A stretch of DNA of 21,222 nucleotides from positions 60,900-82,121 of the forward strand of contig JBOEGD010000007.1 in NCBI GenBank assembly GCA_050633245.1. The letters run 5' to 3'. The position numbers and the translations under genes are program-made. Below are positions 3,281 through 17,508 of the stretch, piece after piece. Origin of the DNA: Calditrichia bacterium. GTDB lineage: Bacteria; Calditrichota; Calditrichia; RBG-13-44-9; J075. Every line of letters starts with the position of its first letter. The stretch's first letter is position 1. The notes below the pieces were generated by a model, which was not told where the DNA came from, ran no database searches, and saw nothing but the letters and a program-made list of their open reading frames with translations.

Positions 3281-4588
3281 TTGCAGAGACCTGATCCTTC
3301 AAGTATTCCGCACGTGGTATTTATTAACTACTACTTTCCCCCAATGGGTGGTGGAGGGGTTCAGCGTATTGTGAAATTTTTAAAGTTTCATAATCCCAAG
3401 CGCTTTAATGCTACCATTCTTACGGTGAAGCCAAGCTACTTCTACTCCGAAGACAATACGCTTGCAGCAGAGCTGCCGAAAGATTTGCCGGTCGTTTATT
3501 CAGGTTCGCTCGATCCTTTTCGCTTGCTGAAACTATTGCATAAAGGCCCCTCGGAAGATTCCCCTACCAATGAGAGTGGAGGTCTCTTAAGACGTATTGC
3601 CGGCTGGTTGTTTATTCCGGATTCGAGAATTCTTTGGCTGCCGTTTGCCGTTGCAAAAATCTGGTGGCTCAACCGCAGCCAGCCCATCGATTTACTGGTT
3701 GCAAGCATGCCGCCCTTTACTGCAGGTCTGATAGCCCGTATTGCTGCAAGAATGTGCAACATTCCCTATGTATTAGATTTTCGAGATGCATGGACAAATA
3801 ATCCCTATCTGCCCGAGCCAACAAAGCTTCACATGCGAATCAACAAGAAGCTGGAAAGCAGCGTACTGCAGCATTCAACCGGCACAGTATTCGTAAACCC
3901 GTACTTAAGCCGCTACTATCGACGTCATTATCATGATATCACTCAAAAGCCCACAATCACTCTGCGCAATGGTTTCGACCCGGATGACTTTAAGTCCATC
4001 CCGGAAAAGCCGGAAGCCGGCCTGACTACGCTTTGCATTATGGGAACGATCTATTCACAAGGAAATCGCCCAACAACTCTGATCCGAGCCTTAGAACGAT
4101 TGCATATTGCTGAGCCGGATCTCGCCATGCGCTTTCGCCTGCGTTTTATCGGGAAGTGGGTTCCGGAGTTCTATGAGGAAGTGCAGCGCAGTCCAATAAA
4201 AGATCTGGTTACATGGACGCCCTATTTACCGCACCGCATTGCTTTGCAGGAAGCGGCAAAAGCGCAACTGCTTGGCCTTGCCCTCGAAAGTAACCTGGAA
4301 GGAAGCGCAGATGTTACACCCGGTCGAATCTACGAGTATCTTCGCATGAGACGTCCTATTCTGGCAATGTGCAATCCTAACGGCGATCTGGCAGATTTAA
4401 TACGTAATGCCAAAGCCGGAGCCGTCGTAGACTATTCTGATGTAGATGGGATTGCCGAAACTCTATGGAACTGGATTTATTCAGCGGAATCGAAAGCAGG
4501 ATATACGTTCAAGGGACTTGATGTTTTTTCGAGAAAGACACAGGCTGAAGAGCTGGAAGAGTTTATTCTGGAAGTTTTACAGACTTAA
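3281..4588 (+). CDS. Glycosyltransferase, GT4 / group 1 (GT-B fold)
   Basis: N-terminal YYFPPMGGGGVQR, IPDSRILW, PYVLDFRDAW, LRNGFDPDDF and C-terminal PGRIYEYL..RRPILA. The TTG start is uncertain. Confidence 0.9.
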   Translation: MQRPDPSSIPHVVFINYYFPPMGGGGVQRIVKFLKFHNPKRFNATILTVKPSYFYSEDNTLAAELPKDLPVVYSGSLDPFRLLKLLHKGPSEDSPTNESGGLLRRIAGWLFIPDSRILWLPFAVAKIWWLNRSQPIDLLVASMPPFTAGLIARIAARMCNIPYVLDFRDAWTNNPYLPEPTKLHMRINKKLESSVLQHSTGTVFVNPYLSRYYRRHYHDITQKPTITLRNGFDPDDFKSIPEKPEAGLTTLCIMGTIYSQGNRPTTLIRALERLHIAEPDLAMRFRLRFIGKWVPEFYEEVQRSPIKDLVTWTPYLPHRIALQEAAKAQLLGLALESNLEGSADVTPGRIYEYLRMRRPILAMCNPNGDLADLIRNAKAGAVVDYSDVDGIAETLWNWIYSAESKAGYTFKGLDVFSRKTQAEELEEFILEVLQT

Positions 4589-7324
4589 ACCGAGCAGCAT
4601 ATCATATTCCCGTGACTCTTCTAATTGTTGGCGTAAAATGTCATCCCCAACTGCATTAAGCAGCTTTTCAAAGGCCTCGTGCGCTTGCGCAATGCGCTGC
4701 TCAAGAAGGGTGGCATTGCCCTGTTCCTTTGCAAGCGCAGCTAAATCCCTCACGACCAGAAACTCAAAATGCGGCAAACGAAAATTATGTGAACGCTCGA
4801 ATGCTTCATTTAGCTTAGGTTCTGCTTTCTCTAAATTTCCCTTCTTCATCGCAACCCGTCCCGTCAGCCAGAGAGCCAGGTTTTCAAATTTTGCTATCCC
4901 GGCACACTGTTCTTCCCAAAAGCCAACAACATCCCCGGCCTTTTCGAGATCATTTGCCTCTAAATGATAACAAACCAGATAGAAGATATAGTTCAATTTA
5001 TCAAGGGAATGATCAAGTAGGTTTACGTACGCCTTTGCATTAAACAGATAGCTTTTTGCCTGATCCAATCGCGCATGTTGCATTTCGTAGGATGCTAAAA
5101 AGAGCGAAGTCTGTAACAGCAACTCCTCTTCACTATGTTCCTTTGCCCAGGCATGAGCACCATTCAGCAGCTCTCCGGCACGAACAAAGCTTCTTACCAA
5201 CATGTGAATATGGCCCAGGTGTGAATGAATCAGATACTTTTCGCTATGCTGTTCGAGTTCAGCGGCCAAACTTGCGGCATCGGAGAGATATTGCAGCGCG
5301 TTGCCGTAGTGAGCGAGTTCTTTTTCAACAATGCCAACCTTGAAAAGCAGGCTGAGCGTGATTTGTCTGCTGGTAAGCAAAAGCGGTGTTTGCAGCAGAT
5401 CCAACAGATGGGACCGCGATAAATACCATTTGCCGAGATAGGCATAAATTTCCGCCAAATATAGCTTCAGCTGTAACCGCGTCGAACTATCGGAAGTGCG
5501 ATGATTTCTATATAGCAGAATAACTTCCGGTAAGGCCTCTGCATATTTATTTTTATGGAGCAGCCTGCGCACTTCTTCCAGGCGCGATAGCACATAGTAT
5601 TTTTTGTCGGAGTGGAATACCGAACGTGCTTTTTCAGTAAGAGCAACAATATCTTTTTCACGATTCTCTTCAGAATAACAGCGCAACAGCGTCTCGTATA
5701 TTCGGTAAGATAATGCCTCATCACCTATTTTAGGCATGTGCGAAGCCGCCTTTTCATAATGCCTTATAGCATAGGCCGAATTACCGGAATACCGCTCGAC
5801 CTTGCCGCTTAGCAAGCTCGCCAGTGCCTGAGCTTCAGGCTGGGTAAAGGCTTTAATCTTGATATCTTGCAGTAAATAACGTGCTTCAGAATAGCCATCC
5901 ATTTCAATCAAAACATCTGCCATATTCAGTGTGGCATAAACCCACTCTGTCGGAAAATCACGATGCAGCTTTTCACGAAGCTCTCTAAACGACTCAAAGG
6001 CATTTTCAAAAAGTCCTAACTGACGCTGCAGCTCTCCGCTTTCGCGCAAAATGTCACGCATATCAATATCGGAATCCGGATCGCGAAACAAATTTCGGCG
6101 CAGAAATCCATATCGCTCCAGGGCTCGGTTCGTCTGTCCGGTTTCGCGAAATCTGCGCGCCTCTCGCAGCGCATAAGCAAGAGACTCGCTGCTTTTACCG
6201 ACATCAAAAAGCTGATCTGAAACCTGGTATGGCAATGCCATTGCACGCGACGCGGCCTCCGGGCCAAAGTATTCCAACGGCTTCCTGAGTTCAGAGATTG
6301 CTGTTTGGTGTCGTAGGAATTGCCTCAGCTTTTGCCATCTGATATTAACAAAGCGTTGATCGAAAAAAGCTTCTCTTACAATCAATTCGTTGTGGAACAG
6401 CTTATCAATTTCCAACGCATCGATGTTAAGATGTTCAGCCAGAAGGTCAAATTCTTCCTCTGGAAAAGGGTCTTCCATTCGGCTCAGGAAAGCGACAAGT
6501 TCGGTAATTCCATTTCCAGCATGTTGGAACAAACTCTGAAAGATGTCTTCCAAAGATGAGCTGGCCTGAATATTCTGCAATTCTCCGCTGGTTACCAAAC
6601 TTACCGGATCTTTGGTGTATAAGGAATGATAGAACGCTTCTACCATACAGCGAATTTTTCGTTCATTGCCGTCAGATTTTATGTGCACAAAGTTGGTAAT
6701 TAATCGCGCAGTAATGTTGTTCATCTCGAGTTCGTCAACCAGAAGCATTTCCGTTTCCTTCACCGAGAGTTTATTCAGCGAAAACGTATCGGTACTTAAC
6801 TCGGCGTGCAACGCGTCATTGCTTGATGTTGCGGTAGTAATAATAAGAACAGGCAGGTTCTTGCTTTCCTGCAGAATGCGAATAAGGGAGCGCGCTTCTT
6901 TGCTTTGAGCACTCCGGAGACCGTGAAGAATACAAATTGACGCGTTTTCTTTGCCAAGATCGCGCAAAAAATCAGCGAGCAGGTTCTCCATCCAAGCAGC
7001 ATCCGATGGACGCTCCAGCACGTTCGAAATCATTTTGATCAGGGGAAGAGATTGTCGGTTCTGGTAAGCAGTAAATTCATTGGGAAACCGCTGCACCAGG
7101 TATTTAAACAGCCCGGCGATTGTGAAGTGTTTATCGAAAGCCGAGATCGCGAAATCAAACTCGAATATCAAACGGGCATTTTCTATTTGGGAGGCCATAT
7201 TTCTGGCAAATCGACGTTTTCCAGCACCCTCGGCGGCATCAATATTTAGCCAAAATGTTCCCCGGCCATTCCACTTGGCCAAACGAGATATAACGTGATC
7301 AAATTCCCTCTGATGCAACATCAC
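4577..7324 (-). CDS. Large protein with a degenerate STAND-type (AAA_16/MalT-like) NTPase followed by TPR-like repeats; function unknown
   Basis: Walker A-like AAEGAGKRR, Walker B-like ICILHGL, LNKLSVKETEMLL, SDGNE at the GNP position, and many helical A/L/Y-rich repeats. Start likely GTG 7324 or ATG 7321 (AGGGGA RBS) rather than 7396. The 3' end overlaps the GT4 gene by 12 nt. Confidence 0.75.
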   Translation of the reverse strand: MMLHQREFDHVISRLAKWNGRGTFWLNIDAAEGAGKRRFARNMASQIENARLIFEFDFAISAFDKHFTIAGLFKYLVQRFPNEFTAYQNRQSLPLIKMISNVLERPSDAAWMENLLADFLRDLGKENASICILHGLRSAQSKEARSLIRILQESKNLPVLIITTATSSNDALHAELSTDTFSLNKLSVKETEMLLVDELEMNNITARLITNFVHIKSDGNERKIRCMVEAFYHSLYTKDPVSLVTSGELQNIQASSSLEDIFQSLFQHAGNGITELVAFLSRMEDPFPEEEFDLLAEHLNIDALEIDKLFHNELIVREAFFDQRFVNIRWQKLRQFLRHQTAISELRKPLEYFGPEAASRAMALPYQVSDQLFDVGKSSESLAYALREARRFRETGQTNRALERYGFLRRNLFRDPDSDIDMRDILRESGELQRQLGLFENAFESFRELREKLHRDFPTEWVYATLNMADVLIEMDGYSEARYLLQDIKIKAFTQPEAQALASLLSGKVERYSGNSAYAIRHYEKAASHMPKIGDEALSYRIYETLLRCYSEENREKDIVALTEKARSVFHSDKKYYVLSRLEEVRRLLHKNKYAEALPEVILLYRNHRTSDSSTRLQLKLYLAEIYAYLGKWYLSRSHLLDLLQTPLLLTSRQITLSLLFKVGIVEKELAHYGNALQYLSDAASLAAELEQHSEKYLIHSHLGHIHMLVRSFVRAGELLNGAHAWAKEHSEEELLLQTSLFLASYEMQHARLDQAKSYLFNAKAYVNLLDHSLDKLNYIFYLVCYHLEANDLEKAGDVVGFWEEQCAGIAKFENLALWLTGRVAMKKGNLEKAEPKLNEAFERSHNFRLPHFEFLVVRDLAALAKEQGNATLLEQRIAQAHEAFEKLLNAVGDDILRQQLEESREYDMLLGLSL

Positions 7325-7407
7325 AATGCTGATTCCCCTATTGATACACGCCTTACAAATCGCTTCAATTGAATGGCGCGATTTGAATGAATACATCTGA
7401 TTGATTT

Positions 7408-12700: not shown

Positions 12701-13223
12701 TCTCAAGATAATAATCGTCTCCAAATACCCCCTGATACCACTCAACCGTTTCGATAGCACCTTTTTTATCCCCCGTTTCGAGCTGAGCAAATACCTCACC
12801 ACTCATGCAGGCAGACAAAACGATAATCCCTTCGCTGTATTTTTCCAGCATTTCCCTGTCGATGCGTGGTTTGTAGTAAAAGCCTTCGATAAACGCCACA
12901 CTTGAGAGCTTCATCAGATTTCGATAGCCGACATTGTTTTTAGCAAGTAGAACCAAATGGTAGGAAGCGCGATTGCGGATGCCATTCGCCTTACGTTCGC
13001 TGCGATGTCCGGGAGCCATATAGGCTTCCATCCCGATGATCGGCTTTATTCCGGCGCTTTTAGCAGCTTTAAAGAATTCCAGCGCACCAAACATGTTGCC
13101 GTGATCGGTAATAGCCAGCGCCGGCATATTGTATTCCTGCGCTTTGGCGATCATCTGTTTGACCTTGTTTGCGCCGTCCAGCAGACTGAATTCACTGTGA
13201 TTATGTAGGTGAACGTAAGACAA
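9738..13223 (-). CDS. dnaE: DNA polymerase III alpha subunit
   Basis: 1161 aa; PHP HLHNHSEFSLLDG, GRGSAAGS, catalytic MPDIDIDF, GLLKMDFLGL, YGFNKSH, clamp motif QTNLF, C-terminal OB fold. TTG start with AAGGAG RBS. Confidence 0.98.
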   Translation of the reverse strand: MSYVHLHNHSEFSLLDGANKVKQMIAKAQEYNMPALAITDHGNMFGALEFFKAAKSAGIKPIIGMEAYMAPGHRSERKANGIRNRASYHLVLLAKNNVGYRNLMKLSSVAFIEGFYYKPRIDREMLEKYSEGIIVLSACMSGEVFAQLETGDKKGAIETVEWYQGVFGDDYYLEIQNHLLEMEAGYDNVYKLGKEMNVPIVATNDVHYLEKGHHDSHDVLVCINSGKCLSDPNRLRYGTQELYLKNVDEMYKMFPNQVDALERTMEVAEKIDVDIEMGVHKLPQFPLPEEDKDLSLEDYLEKVSRIGTADRYGDITPEIEERLKYEISVIRKTGFAGYFLIVQDFIDYAREQDIPVGLGRGSAAGSLVAYALGITNVDPLRYDLLFERFLNPERVTMPDIDIDFCFERREEVIEYVRQKYGERSVAQIITFGTMASKGVIKDVARVLEIDYAEADRISKLIPVHQGKPMKIKEAFSKIPELIEVAENGTPKHKELIKHAEVLEGMSRHASVHAAGIIIAPGELTDYAPLYQTEDANKNKVVTTQFSMNGCEEIGLLKMDFLGLRTLTVIYKCVEMVKKSTGVALDIDNVPLDDPATYEIFCDGGTVGIFQFESKGMQEYLRKLKPDRIEDLIAMNALYRPGPMENIDTYIARKFGQKIEYLHPMLEPILKETNGIIVYQEQVMRIASDLGKFSLGKADILRRAMGKKKLALMAEMEVEFVEGCDENGITKKTAKAIYDLIFKFASYGFNKSHSAAYSILAYQTAYLKRHHPAEFMAASLTSEISDPKRIIILIDECKRMGLDVLPPDVNRSDAVFGVPEPGKVSFGLTAIKNVGKNAIRNMLEVRKEVGEFKNLFQFLQELDLRLVNRKVVESLTQAGAVDSLEGNRAQKFASIETAHSFGQKFQEQAKNKSQTNLFDLMSDDKEENSAGAFLQYPVLPDLQEWPLQDRLNREKELMGFYISGHPLDRYEKEIQLFSNLDWQDSESYRSGKIVKTAAMVSVLKTHMDRKGRFMAFVTFEDRFSTFEGIVFASTYEKYAEFLKQGEIVFVSGKVDDQGDLTFKMLCNEIIPIEESRNRMADSICLKVDTSNISIDQIDTLYRTIREFPGSVDLKFDVRTENSNVGLMLRSKRFRVLLTDDFIHRVEGILGREAILLDNGQVN

Positions 13224-13268
13224 CCTTGCACTCCTTGCAGTTTGAGGTTACAAATCCGGGGTTGGGTT

Positions 13269-13297
13269 AATTTAGCCGTACAGAGGATGTATTGCAA
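13269..13297 (-). promoter_or_regulatory. Sigma70-type promoter of dnaE
   Basis: Minus strand TTGCAA (13297-13292), 17-nt spacer, TAAATT (13274-13269). Confidence 0.55.
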
Positions 13298-13348
13298 ACG
13301 GAATCTAGTGACCATTTGCAATTGACTATTTTACAATAGTTTAGAAGA

Positions 13349-13376
13349 AGTAAAAAGTGAAAGGTGAAAAGTGAAA
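13349..13376. repeat. Heptamer array (AGTGAAA)x4, imperfect
   Basis: AGTAAAA AGTGAAA GGTGAAA AGTGAAA; same family and orientation as 9516-9536. Confidence 0.85.
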
Positions 13377-13537
13377 AACAGACAGAGTTTTAGTGATATG
13401 AGGTGGATAAATGACGGGTTTTATAGGGGTTAGGGAGGGTTGCTTTTAAGTAAGGGAAATAGTGAACGGTTGTGATAGTTAAAAATCGTAGGCTACTGAA
13501 AGAACTACCTTTCAGGGTTTGATTAAGAACGTTTTGC

Positions 13538-14011
13538 TTATGAGCCAAACTGAAATCCCCATCTCGAATTTGCAATCAGCATTATTAGTATTAAATAGTG
13601 CCAGATTATAATTGAAACACCAAACTGCAAATACATATTTGGCAATTTATGATGAGTATAGAGTTCCTCTTCTAAAAAGTTAAGCCTTACCAGTTTTTCA
13701 TAGACGTCATGATTTGACTTAAACAGACGATGGATCGCAATTAGTGAGATCGGAAGAAAGCAAAATAAACCAATTATCGTTAAAATTGTTAGAAAGAAAC
13801 TCAGCTCAAAGACATTCTGAACAGCTTTGGAAGTTAAGAGCCGGCCAATCGTGATGAGTAAAATACTTGATATCGATATAATTGCATTGTTGAATCTCTG
13901 ATTAAAGCTTTCAAGCGCAGCGACCAAAGATTGAAACCTTTTTTCATCCATAGACTTCCTCTTGCTATTAGTTTCAGAAACGACTTGACCAGCAGTTGGC
14001 CTTCCACTCAT
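13538..14011 (-). CDS. Hypothetical small membrane protein (about 3 TM segments), low GC
   Basis: Hydrophobic stretches AIISISSILLITIG, FFLTILTIIGLFCFLPISLIAI and FGVSIIIWHYLILIMLIA. Its ATG overlaps the upstream stop (TAATG); alternative ATG at 13951 with GAGGA. Confidence 0.7.
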   Translation of the reverse strand: MSGRPTAGQVVSETNSKRKSMDEKRFQSLVAALESFNQRFNNAIISISSILLITIGRLLTSKAVQNVFELSFFLTILTIIGLFCFLPISLIAIHRLFKSNHDVYEKLVRLNFLEEELYTHHKLPNMYLQFGVSIIIWHYLILIMLIANSRWGFQFGS

Positions 14012-17000
14012 TAGCTACCAAACTCATCATCCGGGTTGATCTCGACCTCCGGCATGGGTTCGAATTTAGAAGGATCGAATGCAGGCATTTCTGGCTCAGG
14101 AGCCTCCAGGGTCTTCAGAAGCTCTTTCGCTTTGGTTAGGCCACGATAATAGGCATATGGAGGCCCATCACACCAGGCTTTGCGATAGGCCTCGGTGGCT
14201 GCTTCTATGGCAGCCTGGTTATTACCGGCATCCTGTTCAATTTTGGCCAGAACGAGCAAAGCATCGGCATGAAAGATTGGATAGGGGCCTCGTTCGGCTG
14301 ACTCCCACACCTCCTCTAGGAGATTTCGAGCGTTCTCAGGCTCTTTCTGCTGCCAATTTAAATCAGCAAGAGCGATCAGGGTCGCTAGTTCTTCTTCTAT
14401 TACTTGTACATTATGTGCGCGCCTGAGAGCAAAATGCAGCTTTTCCTTTGCATAATCCAGATCCCCTAACTGCATAGCTGCACTGCCCTGCAACCTAGCA
14501 GCACGGATAATGTCTCGTTCGAGACGTAGAATCCCAGCTAATCTCCAAGCCTCTTCAGCAAACTTTTTCGCTGAATCTGGCGTATTCTGTAAAAGAGATG
14601 CTTTTGAAAGGTAAGCATTTGTCACACCCATGAATTGTTCATGGTTTTGATCTATCCAAATTCGATAAGAGTGCTGTAAAAAGCGTTCGGCTTCCTCATA
14701 TTTTCCTAATAAAGGCAAGACAAGCCCCAATAAATACAGACTCATTCCCAAGGGATAGTCATATTTTATATCTTGAGCAATTACCAGAGCAATTTTAGCA
14801 GTGGCCTCAGACCTATAGAGTGCGCCAATCGAAGTCAAAGTCTGAGATAAATTGCACATTGAAACAGAAAGATTGCTTTGATCACCTTCTAGTGAGTCAA
14901 TTCGTAGAGCCCGTTCAAAAATCATAACTGCAGTACCGGGCCGGCCCGCAAAGTGATATCCACCTGCCAGCGAATCTATAGCAAATGCCTGAGTCATTGA
15001 ATTGCTTAGAGATGGTAGACTATCAGTGCCATTCGGAAAAAGACGTTCTAGCAGCTCAACCCGTAAACGGCTGGCACTCAACCGCCATAGCGTAGCAGCA
15101 TCAAGCTTTTCATAAAAAATCATAAATGCTGCATCATATTGCCCCAGTTCAATTAAGGTATTATAGAGTTCAATCGCTGGGGTCAGATCTTCCACAGTTT
15201 CTACTTTAAGATAATCCTCCATCATCGGCATAGCTTCGAAGTGGCTACGCAGTGAACCATAAATATCGCTACGTTGCGTGTCATCAAGTCTGCTCCACAC
15301 CACTCCGCGTACAATCGGATGCAAATCGTAGCGGTTTGCGCGGCGATCCCAGCCAAGCAGTCCTCTGTCTTCAAGTATCGTGAGTGACTGGTCCATTTCT
15401 TTGAAAGTCGCAAAGGGTCTCTGCCCATGATCATCACCGTTTTCGATGGAAATCAGCAGGGCCTTGAGAGTGTCAATGCTAGCCGGCATGCGGAAGCCGG
15501 CAATCACGTGCAGCGTACGCAGTTCTGCTTTGGAAAGGCCGCGCAGCGCATGGGTGAGTACCTCCGTCTGCACTTGCACCAGCGGTAGATCAAAGGGATC
15601 AAACTCTGGATGCGCAGCCCGCCAGGCATCAAAATCACCGGGTGCCTCACGAAATTCTGCAACCTCATAGGCAAGCAGCTGAAGGAGTAAGGGGTGTTTC
15701 TCAAATGTGTGAAAAACCGGCAGCATGGTCTCACGAGAGCCTTTGGCACCGTAAGCTCTCCATAGTTCCAGCGCATCGGCATCGCTTAATCCTTTAAGAA
15801 AAAGCGCAGAACAACCGGGCAAGAGCTGCCCCGTCGGTACCTGCAAATCTGCCGGATAAAGCCGGGTGCTGGCCAAGATTCGCGTGTTGCTAAGGCGGGC
15901 AAGCTTGCGAAGAAACTGGCCAGCCCTGACATCTGCGGTTTTACGCAGTTGATGCTTGCCAACGAAAGACTTACCGGCGCTTTGCGGCAGGCCTGATGCT
16001 TTGGCTACATAATTAGACGTTTCCTCATCAAGCGTATTCTCATCCAATAGATAGGCAGCATCCTGACGGGCATAGGCGATTAAAATGCGTTCCAATCCAT
16101 CCAGAACCAAAAGAAAAGACTCTTGACTAAGAGCATTGAGTAGGGCATCCTGCTGCTCGGCAATTGGAGTGTTTTTCAACGATTCAAGCGAACGCCCACT
16201 TACATATGCAAGAGTACGGGTCACAAAATTCTCAAAGGTTGCATCAGACTCATAGAAGCTCCACCAAACCTGTCCGGCCCACTTCTTTTCCTGCGGGGCA
16301 ATGTCATTGAACCAGGTCCAGGTAAGCGCAGATTTACCCATCCCGCCAATGGCCACAATATTGAAGATGGTAACATCTCGTAATTTCGATTTGGTGACCC
16401 AATCGGTAAGAATATCAAGCTCGCGCTTGCGTCCTACCAAACCTCTTGTTTGCAGCAAGGTATAAGGGTGCGCGATGTAGGGCTTGCCTTTTTCCGGGAT
16501 GGTAGAAACGTAATGAAACAAGTCAGCAACCTTGGTTGCAGGTTCTTCACCGCCGATAATAGCATCTTCCAGCTGCTTTCTGGCCTCGGTTAGCGCATGA
16601 AGCGCCTGACCTCGCAGATCTTTCGGACTCTCAAAGAAGCCAACAACACGCTCCTTTTTAAGACGGGCTTTTAACGCAGTCAGCTTATCTGCAGAGTCAC
16701 CAGTGTCAAAATCTGCCGGTTTCACAGCTACTTCACTATGCATCAAAAATAGCAGACGCGGGATGCCTCGTTCGACCGCCCTCTCGTATTCCATTTCAGT
16801 GATAGATATATCGTGCTCATCTGGAATATAGCCATAACGATGTGCAAACAGCCCAACATAGATATCTGCTTCTTCTACAAGAGCCAGTGAGGCTTCAATA
16901 GCATCGGCATCGAGCGCAGGTAGCTGCTCCATCATTATGGGAAACATGCTCGCCCGTAGACAGGCATCCTGTACCTGCTGACGATACTCCGGCAAATCGC

Positions 17001-17040
17001 GTGATGTGCTGCTGACCATTACCTTCAGAATTTCACTCAT
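14011..17040 (-). CDS. DUF4062 / STAND (NB-ARC-like) NTPase / winged helix / TPR protein (bacterial NLR-like)
   Basis: DUF4062 signature VMVSSTSRDL...ME...DIYVGLFAHRYG...SITEMEY..A; LVGRKREL; Walker A AIGGMGKS; Walker B FLLVLDGLE; LKGLSDADALEL; HPLLLQL; YDLHPIVR; C-terminal helical repeats. AAGGTG RBS. Confidence 0.92.
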   Translation of the reverse strand: MSEILKVMVSSTSRDLPEYRQQVQDACLRASMFPIMMEQLPALDADAIEASLALVEEADIYVGLFAHRYGYIPDEHDISITEMEYERAVERGIPRLLFLMHSEVAVKPADFDTGDSADKLTALKARLKKERVVGFFESPKDLRGQALHALTEARKQLEDAIIGGEEPATKVADLFHYVSTIPEKGKPYIAHPYTLLQTRGLVGRKRELDILTDWVTKSKLRDVTIFNIVAIGGMGKSALTWTWFNDIAPQEKKWAGQVWWSFYESDATFENFVTRTLAYVSGRSLESLKNTPIAEQQDALLNALSQESFLLVLDGLERILIAYARQDAAYLLDENTLDEETSNYVAKASGLPQSAGKSFVGKHQLRKTADVRAGQFLRKLARLSNTRILASTRLYPADLQVPTGQLLPGCSALFLKGLSDADALELWRAYGAKGSRETMLPVFHTFEKHPLLLQLLAYEVAEFREAPGDFDAWRAAHPEFDPFDLPLVQVQTEVLTHALRGLSKAELRTLHVIAGFRMPASIDTLKALLISIENGDDHGQRPFATFKEMDQSLTILEDRGLLGWDRRANRYDLHPIVRGVVWSRLDDTQRSDIYGSLRSHFEAMPMMEDYLKVETVEDLTPAIELYNTLIELGQYDAAFMIFYEKLDAATLWRLSASRLRVELLERLFPNGTDSLPSLSNSMTQAFAIDSLAGGYHFAGRPGTAVMIFERALRIDSLEGDQSNLSVSMCNLSQTLTSIGALYRSEATAKIALVIAQDIKYDYPLGMSLYLLGLVLPLLGKYEEAERFLQHSYRIWIDQNHEQFMGVTNAYLSKASLLQNTPDSAKKFAEEAWRLAGILRLERDIIRAARLQGSAAMQLGDLDYAKEKLHFALRRAHNVQVIEEELATLIALADLNWQQKEPENARNLLEEVWESAERGPYPIFHADALLVLAKIEQDAGNNQAAIEAATEAYRKAWCDGPPYAYYRGLTKAKELLKTLEAPEPEMPAFDPSKFEPMPEVEINPDDEFGS

Positions 17041-17078
17041 GTTTCACCTTTCGGCCTTTTGAAAAAGCAGAGCTAAGA

Positions 17079-17156
17079 AACAATTTTGTAGAAACACAAT
17101 AAAGTCATCTGCATCAGGGTAACCCTGGAGCAGGTTTTTCTATCAACAAAATTATT
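17079..17156 (-). promoter_or_regulatory. Long imperfect stem-loop in the predicted 5' leader of the DUF4062-STAND gene
   Basis: Nested inverted repeats AACAATTTTG/CAAAATTATT, TAGAAA/TTTCTA, CTGC/GCAG and CAGGGT/ACCCTG. Confidence 0.5.
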
Positions 17157-17179
17157 GGGGAGTAAACTTCTATTGATTA

Positions 17180-17208
17180 AATATAGCTGCATTTTATCGT
17201 TAGGGCAA
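17180..17208 (-). promoter_or_regulatory. Sigma70-type promoter of the DUF4062-STAND operon
   Basis: Minus strand TTGCCC (17208-17203), 17-nt spacer, TATATT (17185-17180); the -10 is identical to that predicted for fahA. Confidence 0.55.
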
Positions 17209-17311
17209 GCTGTTGCTACGGAGGTCAACAACTAGCTGCGAGCAAGTGCTTATCGCTATTAAGAGCTTTGCAACGCCACTGGATTGACCGATGTCTCCGC
17301 TCAAAATCACC

Positions 17312-17358
17312 TTTAACCATGAAATCTCGTAATTACAACTCGAATTTTCATGGTTAAA
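17312..17358. repeat. 13-bp perfect inverted repeat, function unknown
   Basis: TTTAACCATGAAA (17312-17324), 21 nt, TTTCATGGTTAAA (17346-17358). Confidence 0.85.
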
Positions 17359-17429
17359 ATGATAATTGTGCAATTAATCGCAGGAATTGCGAACATACGT
17401 GCGGGTCTGGGGTTGCGTGACGCAATTTA

Positions 17430-17508
17430 AATACGCGGGTCTGGACCCGCGCTACGTTTATTCAATCAATACGCGGGTCTGGACCCGCGCTACGTTTATT
17501 CAATCAAT
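17430..17508 (-). repeat. Exact 38-bp tandem duplication containing a GTAG-type REP hairpin
   Basis: AATACGCGGGTCTGGACCCGCGCTACGTTTATTCAATC at 17430-17467 and 17468-17505; the minus strand reads GTAG-CGCGGGTC-CA-GACCCGCG. Confidence 0.9.

Follow-up and report, generated by a model that had tools for sequence, protein, structure and literature searches.

The locus and its genes

The window analyzed here is a stretch of 21,222 nt from the assembly of a Calditrichia bacterium (GCA_050633245.1, contig JBOEGD010000007.1, positions 60,900 to 82,121). Its minus strand carries a long open reading frame (ORF) for a protein we call P0001, with an N-terminal DUF4062 (NIR) head, a STAND nucleotide-binding module and a C-terminal TPR array, followed by a short ORF for a small hydrophobic protein, P0002. 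An earlier note, written by a model from the sequence, had read the two as an undescribed two-gene NLR-like defense system. We consider it likely, from sequence and homology, that P0001 is instead a stand-alone, horizontally acquired NIR-NB-ARC-TPR antiviral sensor that depletes NAD+ and thereby kills or arrests the infected cell, and P0002 looks like an unrelated neighbor that happens to lie downstream. This reading is based on the order of the domains, on intact motifs for catalysis and ATPase function, on the class of fold, on a patchy distribution and on the insertion of the gene into a conserved slot. The features of P0001 are as follows.

14011..17040 including the stop, minus strand: P0001 coding sequence, NIR(DUF4062)-STAND-TPR, 1009 aa (ORF list and translation)
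16561..17040, minus strand: NIR/DUF4062 TIR-like head, residues 1-160 (Pfam PF13271 and KpSwz profile match)
16789-16791, minus strand: codon of E84, the presumed catalytic Glu (invariant column)
15241..16443, minus strand: STAND nucleotide-binding and oligomerization module, residues 200-600, with nucleotide-binding domain (NBD), helical domain and winged helix (invariant columns, fold matches)
16333-16335, minus strand: codon of K236 in Walker A, GGMGKS (alignments)
16099-16101, minus strand: codon of D314 in Walker B, LVLDG (alignments)
15886-16086, minus strand: conserved stretch of ~65 residues (319-385) from Walker B to the STR strand end (family alignment; low prediction confidence)
14161..15123, minus strand: TPR sensor array, residues 640-960, ~16 helical hairpins (TPR_12, TPR_MalT)
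14014..14160, minus strand: conserved C-terminal tail, residues 961-1009, from WCDGPP to an acidic end (invariant columns)

The ORF is intact over 1009 codons on the window's minus strand. Its composition is normal for the host genome (GC 0.487, codon-usage score 0.24), and the starts of P0001 and of dnaE each have a clear Shine-Dalgarno-like site.

The N-terminal head and its likely chemistry

The Pfam profile for DUF4062 (PF13271) matches residues 6-88 of P0001 with 79.3 bits against a cutoff of 24.7, and it is also matched by 22/22 family members. The TEMEY stretch that the earlier note had singled out for its glutamate is present in P0001; E84 is invariant in all 22 aligned members and E82 in 19 of them. 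Three preprints from 2026 describe the domain, under the name NIR, as a TIR-like NADase with ADP-ribose and nicotinamide as products (Le Mouellic et al., bioRxiv 10.64898/2026.09.04.749371; Osinski et al., bioRxiv 10.64898/2026.05.01.722283; Ibarra-Chavez et al., bioRxiv 10.64898/2026.06.25.731849). NAD+ depletion by DUF4062 is reported there for PsAvs2, Vulcan, Vesta, Swarozyc and Evangelion, with E97 of KpSwz (the Swarozyc protein) and E108 of PsAvs2 given as catalytic glutamates.

The head of P0001 belongs recognizably with these enzymes. The DUF4062 NADase KpSwz (PDB 10wc, 11cq, 11cv) matches the family profile at E 3.3e-18 over residues 3-155, and P0001 as a single sequence at E 3.5e-10 (phmmer). 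As the deposited KpSwz protein is the 15-C E97A construct (10.64898/2026.05.01.722283), and the Ala of the deposited chain stands opposite E84 in the phmmer alignment, we take E84 to be the catalytic Glu. On the strength of this match, the invariant glutamate position and the preprint precedents, the head most likely degrades NAD+, which agrees with the action on NAD+ that had been suggested for it.

One alternative keeps the sensor and changes the chemistry: the NIR head would make a signaling nucleotide, as a Thoeris-type TIR does, or cleave another nucleotide, and there would be no bulk NAD+ depletion. CMP hydrolase was the domain's original annotation, and the head of the P0001 clade is distant from KpSwz, as the E value of 3.5e-10 indicates. 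The DUF4062 fold also lies between those of TIR and nucleoside 2-deoxyribosyltransferase (10.64898/2026.09.04.749371; 10.64898/2026.05.01.722283). We nevertheless find other chemistry very unlikely: according to the same two sources all NIR domains tested (PsAvs2, Vulcan, VstA, KpSwz and human TEP1) yield ADP-ribose and nicotinamide, and the P0001 family has no conserved downstream receptor gene.

The switch and the repeat array

Behind the head lies the nucleotide-binding and oligomerization module (NOD in what follows). NB-ARC (PF00931) matches residues 212-314 with 22.7 bits, slightly below its cutoff of 23.5; in the family, AAA_16 matches 22/22 members and NB-ARC 7/22 at E <= 0.01. Walker A and Walker B are intact, as had been claimed, and invariant in family alignments of 22 and of 71 sequences, together with the STR strand end (391-393) and the winged-helix LHP (H574, P575). 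Other columns invariant in both alignments are G203, R204 and E207 (an upstream GRxxE), G232, G235, K236, S237 and D314. In the terms of the STAND literature, these columns belong to Walker A GxxGxGK[ST], Walker B hhhhD and GRxxE.

A full-length AlphaFold2 (AF2) model of P0001 reached a mean predicted local distance difference test score (pLDDT) of 73.1 and a predicted template modeling score (pTM) of 0.49. Its Foldseek matches were mostly TPR proteins, and the NOD was therefore refolded alone (residues 185-640, from 71 sequences; pLDDT 73.3, pTM 0.72). In the full-length model pLDDT is mostly 85-97 in the TPR region and below 50 at residues 994-1009; in the NOD model it falls below 50 at model residues 132-160 and 170-180. 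The nearest fold to the NOD model is the archaeal STAND-TPR protein PH0952 (6mfv; Z 15.1, 297 residues aligned, rmsd 5.5), and further matches are NRC2 (Z 13.6), Apaf-1 (Z 13.2) and MalT (Z 12.5). Foldseek, one of the checks the earlier note had proposed, gives Apaf-1 at E 2.2e-8 with a template modeling (TM) score of 0.52, and places Avs3 as a distant match at rank 48 (E 4.1e-4). In its predicted fold, then, the switch of P0001 is NB-ARC/AP-ATPase-like and has a winged-helix module. This fold and the order of the domains bear out the NLR-like effector-STAND-TPR architecture, and the winged helix and TPR-like repeats that had been read from the letters are both seen in the prediction.

The repeats give Pfam matches to TPR_12 and TPR_MalT across residues 686-953; in NCBIfam, TPR matches are the only ones for P0001 and P0002, all below threshold. 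Against 21 relatives, identity averages 60% in the head, 68% in the NTPase, 65% in the winged-helix arm, 50% in the TPR array and 66% in the tail, which makes the array the least conserved domain. Many columns from W956 to E1000 are invariant in the 22-sequence alignment. By sequence, the stretch 319-385 and the tail 961-1009 stand out as two clade-specific features.

The adjacent gene for a three-segment membrane protein

P0002 is read from the same strand, with two possible extents.

13538..14011, minus strand: maximal P0002 ORF, 157 aa (ORF list)
13538..13951, minus strand: probable P0002 coding sequence, 137 aa from M21 plus stop (homologue starts, the public record's product and a Shine-Dalgarno-like site)

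The TAA of P0001 overlaps the ATG of the maximal ORF as TAATG, and the earlier note had presented the membrane protein as coupled. The overlap is there; the coupling is doubtful. All 13 homologues align from query residues 15-23, the full-length ones beginning at M21 of P0002, and the product in the public record is 137 aa. A Shine-Dalgarno-like AAGAGGAAG lies at 13955-13963, 3 nt ahead of the ATG at 13951, and there is no comparable site at the TAATG start. P0002 therefore most likely starts at this internal ATG, 60 nt downstream of the overlap; TAATG is probably not used, and the gap from the P0001 stop to P0002 would be ~57 nt.

From its relatives we conclude that P0002 is a real gene, one of a rare family of ~145-aa proteins. 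A word-index search gave zero matches, but among 1.84 billion representatives an exhaustive HMMER search picked up 14 relatives at E <= 0.001, most of them 140-150 aa long and 9 of them reaching E <= 1e-10, and we rejected the idea that P0002 is an orphan. The small ORF does have three hydrophobic segments, in line with the earlier note (residues 43-61, 73-91 and 128-146), and these occupy conserved positions in 5/5 homologues checked. An ORF of 157 codons is also rare by chance, being reached in 0.12% of 5000 local-composition shuffles. P0002 has no matching family in Pfam, NCBIfam or PADLOC. The ESM Atlas returns unnamed clusters with ~144-aa "hypothetical protein" entries at 0.90-0.91, and structural neighbors with TM scores <= 0.53 that form no consistent family. 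A tblastn search of plasmids with the Azohydromonas homologue gave nothing, and longer, fused forms of P0002 were not found, which is weak evidence.

The composition of P0002 differs from that of its neighbor. Its GC of 0.359 lies below the 1st percentile (0.377) of the host genome's long genes, and its codon score of 0.061 lies at their 1st percentile (0.066) and is reached by 29% of antisense shadow ORFs. Because of these differences in GC (0.359 vs 0.487) and codon score (0.061 vs 0.24), the sequences point to different histories for P0001 and P0002.

Loci of P0001 relatives bear directly on whether the two genes are a pair. We collected 81 loci encoding full-length relatives: one from a Rhodothermales metagenome-assembled genome (MAG), the single locus returned by a one-protein scan of genome contigs, and 80 from metagenome contigs, the best 80 of 373 matching stretches (49-68% identity). 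A crude gene caller recovered the main gene in 78 loci, 61 of which extend at least 500 nt downstream. The set holds near-duplicates, such as L027/L028, L052/L053 and L072/L073, and the independent sample is therefore smaller than 78.

In this set, which served to look for a similar transmembrane gene beside homologues as the earlier note had proposed, a P0002 relative was found at 0/81 loci (E 0.88 at best with blastp and 3.2 with tblastn). A small multi-transmembrane ORF downstream (same strand, 80-300 aa, at least two hydrophobic segments, within 300 nt) occurs in 1/61 loci, L023, and this ORF is no relative of the P0002 family (hhalign probability 0.2%). All-against-all clustering of neighbors gave no family in more than 6/78 loci, and the small recurring groups look like synteny among close relatives. 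The P0001 family is thus a single-gene module, and its pairing with P0002 is peculiar to the host genome.

These results weigh against the two-gene model, which has the NIR head producing or depleting a nucleotide and a translationally coupled three-segment membrane protein serving as a signal-gated effector or accessory. The genes do lie on the same strand and are separated by ~57 nt at most; the scan called no terminator-like site on that strand in the gap, and both sit within the same 4.3-kb insertion. Neither turned up in the related genomes searched (0/60 relatives for P0001; no match of the P0002-family profile in 85 other genomes of the phylum), and P0002 is a real gene with the relatives described above. 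We still regard the two-gene model as highly improbable, and the earlier claim of a system with a membrane partner is not supported: linkage is seen at 0/81 loci, the one downstream multi-transmembrane ORF is unrelated, the compositions suggest different histories, and with the likely M21 start TAATG coupling is probably unused. Nor is a transmembrane partner named in the main texts of the three DUF4062 preprints, where the word "transmembrane" occurs 0 times. By position only, P0002 is probably co-transcribed with P0001, and it is probably not a component of the system.

At three of the loci (L021 3888-5690, L046 3-926, L063 2719-4524) a ~600-aa protein whose C-terminus matches PADLOC "mad3" (E 1e-33 to 1e-35) is encoded directly upstream of the P0001 relative on the same strand; this may be synteny among close relatives.

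Distribution and genomic setting of the P0001 family

Among 8000 proteins scored in a word-index search, 1900 were P0001 relatives at E <= 0.001, and the best 120 listed are all at least 54% identical to P0001 with 98-100% coverage. The family is 49-72% identical over its full length and spans several phyla. Named sources are Bacteroidota, Rhodothermaceae, Pyrinomonadaceae/Blastocatellia and Cytophagales; the closest relatives lie in other phyla and are labeled "DUF4062 domain-containing" or "TPR repeat protein" and nothing more. Within the host's own family, order or class, 0/60 genomes have a P0001 relative at E <= 1e-50; their completeness ranges from 62 to 100%, and 40 reach 90% or more with contamination of 5% or less.

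Related genomes also show the slot in which the gene lies.

13224..17498, no strand assigned: insertion block, 4275 nt, both genes inside, between dnaE and a deacetylase gene and missing in relatives

The deacetylase gene and dnaE are separated by ~103, ~333 and ~444 nt in three relatives from different genera (G007, G002 and G011), and DNA similarity to relatives ends at the dnaE start (13222-13237). Because the flanking genes are adjacent in relatives and similarity stops at dnaE, we interpret the block as an insertion. The relatives' intergenic DNA does not align, and the ends are placed no finer than 13224-17498; a search for direct repeats or att-like sites flanking the block gave short, chance-level matches alone. 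Two other relatives (G003, G008) have these flanking genes at a large distance from each other, seven more have them on different contigs, and in G004 the slot between them holds chemotaxis-receptor genes. The slot thus seems variable.

Several findings weigh against an antiviral role. Full-length copies were found on 0 of 72,556 plasmids and in 0 of 50,697 phage records. All 14 flanking genes of the window are housekeeping or envelope genes, which upholds the earlier description of the pair as lying between housekeeping runs. Defense-specific neighbors (AbiEi, AbiEi with AbiEii, DrmD-like) occur in 3/78 loci, counted without a background. P0001 and 22/22 family members match no Avs/NLR model of PADLOC v2, and the conservation is unusual for an immune sensor, even the TPR array being 50% identical across phyla.

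The PADLOC results have a further side. The library used, PADLOC-DB v2.0.0, dates from 2023. P0001 itself, for which the earlier note had proposed a PADLOC run, hit 0 of its families at E <= 0.1; at E <= 0.01 the Avs/NLR models matched 0/22 family members, and generic TPR models alone were hit, by 4 and 1 members. Among neighbors, taking two genes on each side, 20/248 matched PADLOC at E <= 1e-10 (12/125 and 8/123), a count that has no matched background, and most matches were generic: Ser/Thr-kinase-like, sigma-54 AAA+, helicase, ATPases and TnpB-like. For NIR genes at large, the preprints report enrichment near defense genes, 20.0% vs 3.9% (10.64898/2026.09.04.749371; 10.64898/2026.05.01.722283).

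Such findings could instead suit a cellular signaling STAND, in which an endogenous or environmental ligand leads to NAD+ turnover or ADP-ribose signaling, for example during stress, dormancy or development. All 1009 residues are under strong purifying selection across phyla (49-72% identity, with a TPR array at 50% and a conserved tail), genomic contexts are mostly outside defense, no full-length copy was found on the plasmids and phages searched, and the regulators MalT and PH0952 are among the nearest folds to the NOD. P0001 has, however, no DNA-binding or other regulatory output domain. The failure to find the family in 60/60 relatives, together with the insertion signature, fits an accessory gene; all bacterial DUF4062 proteins tested to date act in phage defense, according to the preprints; and a distant IMG/VR relative has a swapped N-terminal domain and stands beside an AAA+/subtilase pair. 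We therefore judge a cellular role unlikely and keep to the reading of P0001 as an antiviral sensor.

That distant relative, on IMG/VR contig L094, is a 938-aa NB-ARC-TPR protein, 29% identical to P0001 over residues 187-1004, with an N-terminus that is not DUF4062. It looks like a case of effector swapping on a mobile element. On this contig (4536-7352 and 7855-11286) the relative is followed by genes for an AAA ATPase and an S8 subtilase, with a ParM-like gene near.

Some family members are longer by 350-500 residues: P0014 (1438 aa), P0081 (1379 aa) and a 1511-aa ORF at L060 5989-10524. Precomputed Pfam assignments give PF13749 in P0014 and PF14516 in P0081, and fused variants of the family thus exist. 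The host genome itself carries at least four NIR-head genes. Three further DUF4062 proteins are encoded at G000 C22:42688-43167 (L004), C31:51629-52045 (L005) and C16:112-561 (L003); their sizes are 337 aa, a frame of at least 639 aa and, at a contig edge, at least 188 aa, and no other Pfam domains were detected in the three.

Relation to described systems and a possible mechanism

The NIR-STAND-TPR architecture and its mechanism are already described, because the 2026 preprints show the NADase activity of DUF4062 and defense by PsAvs2; the word "undescribed" in the earlier note no longer applies, and the P0001 clade may itself already stand in the published NIR trees or tables. PsAvs2, a NIR-STAND-TPR protein, protects by NAD+ depletion; the catalytic Glu is required, and terminase is the trigger (Le Mouellic et al., bioRxiv 10.64898/2026.09.04.749371). 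P0001 shares with it a single-gene layout, an N-terminal DUF4062/NIR head with catalytic Glu, a STAND NTPase and C-terminal TPR-type repeats. The two were compared by description, not by sequence, and P0001 matches no Avs model of PADLOC v2; in fold, its NOD resembles NB-ARC, Apaf-1 and PH0952 (Z 13-15) more closely than it does Avs3, which comes 48th in Foldseek (E 4.1e-4).

By analogy with PsAvs2, one would expect sensor binding, oligomerization, conversion of NAD+ into ADP-ribose plus nicotinamide, and abortive infection. At rest, the TPR array and an ADP-bound NB-ARC-like switch would keep P0001 an inactive monomer. A phage protein bound by the TPR region would release the switch, ATP-dependent oligomerization would gather the N-terminal NIR heads, and the resulting loss of NAD+ would stop the infected cell.

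Other NIR systems share parts of this design. Swarozyc (KpSwz) and Evangelion are single-gene systems whose NADase heads are homologous to that of P0001, presumably with the same catalytic position. As described in the preprints, their heads sit on helical stalks or an "AUX" region, without the STAND NTPase or TPR array of P0001, and KpSwz is activated by a phage portal in a supramolecular complex (10.64898/2026.05.01.722283). Vulcan (NIR-HEAT) joins a NIR NADase to a helical-repeat sensor as P0001 does but lacks an NTPase switch. Vesta, a NIR protein with an alkaline phosphatase, sets a precedent for NIR operons of two genes; its phosphatase is strongly linked across genomes (10.64898/2026.09.04.749371), whereas P0002 is unlinked to the P0001 family.

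Outside the NIR systems, the closest parallels are with NB-ARC proteins. Apaf-1, NRC2 and PH0952 (6mfv) share the NBD, helical-domain and winged-helix fold predicted for P0001 (Z 13.2-15.1), and PH0952 also has a TPR array as sensor. Plant TIR-NLRs (ROQ1/RPP1) resemble P0001 in placing a TIR-like enzymatic head before an NB-ARC-like switch. Sequence identity to NB-ARC STANDs is 12-17%, and P0001 differs from them in the extra conserved ~65 residues that separate Walker B from the next core strand and in a head that is NIR, not canonical TIR.

These comparisons can also be joined with the P0002 data in a single scenario. The P0001 proteins would form a distinct, exceptionally conserved NB-ARC-type NIR-NLR clade in at least four phyla, with its own conserved ~65-residue insert and an invariant acidic tail, kept so by recognition of one near-universal ligand, and P0002 would be a lineage-specific, co-transcribed second effector or immunity factor, so that the locus would show a two-gene system being born. 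We think this combination a long shot.

If P0001 is active as a sensor, its clade would be an NB-ARC-type bacterial counterpart of plant TIR-NLRs among the NIR NADase effectors. The NIR head also occurs in human TEP1, NWD1/2 and NPHP3. Conservation over the full length and across phyla makes the family a convenient one for a trigger search and for structures of a STAND switch gating a NIR head. For annotation, the members of a widespread family can now be treated as candidate single-gene NLR-like NADases, with the adjacent membrane ORF left out of the system.

Other features of the window

On the dnaE side the insertion is flanked by genes for DnaE, Dtd (D-Tyr-tRNA deacylase), a PASTA protein and Rpe, and on the other side by genes for a polysaccharide deacetylase, a GT2 protein, an LPG_synthase_TM protein, PCC and RNase H. 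A 939-aa ORF at 4577-7396 on the minus strand, between a glycosyltransferase gene and rpe, has no Pfam match at E <= 0.001. In the deacetylase-dnaE slot of the relative G004 (L090 1176-3363, G004:C116) we saw PilJ/HAMP and MCP-signal ORFs and a 196-aa ORF without a family.

Upstream of P0001, two features remain.

17180..17208, minus strand: promoter-like site, TTGCCC, 17 nt, TATATT (consensus scan, 9 of 12; weak)
17430..17505, no strand assigned: perfect 38-nt tandem duplication, each copy with a GC-rich terminator-like hairpin, directly after the deacetylase gene

The pair had been credited with its own promoter, for which the evidence is weak. One 9-of-12 site is present at 17208..17180, and the upstream gene is followed by a terminator-like hairpin; the 8 promoter-like matches in the region, on the other hand, compare with 6.0 +/- 2.3 in shuffles. 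The 38-nt sequence occurs in these two copies alone in the 6.3-Mb genome.

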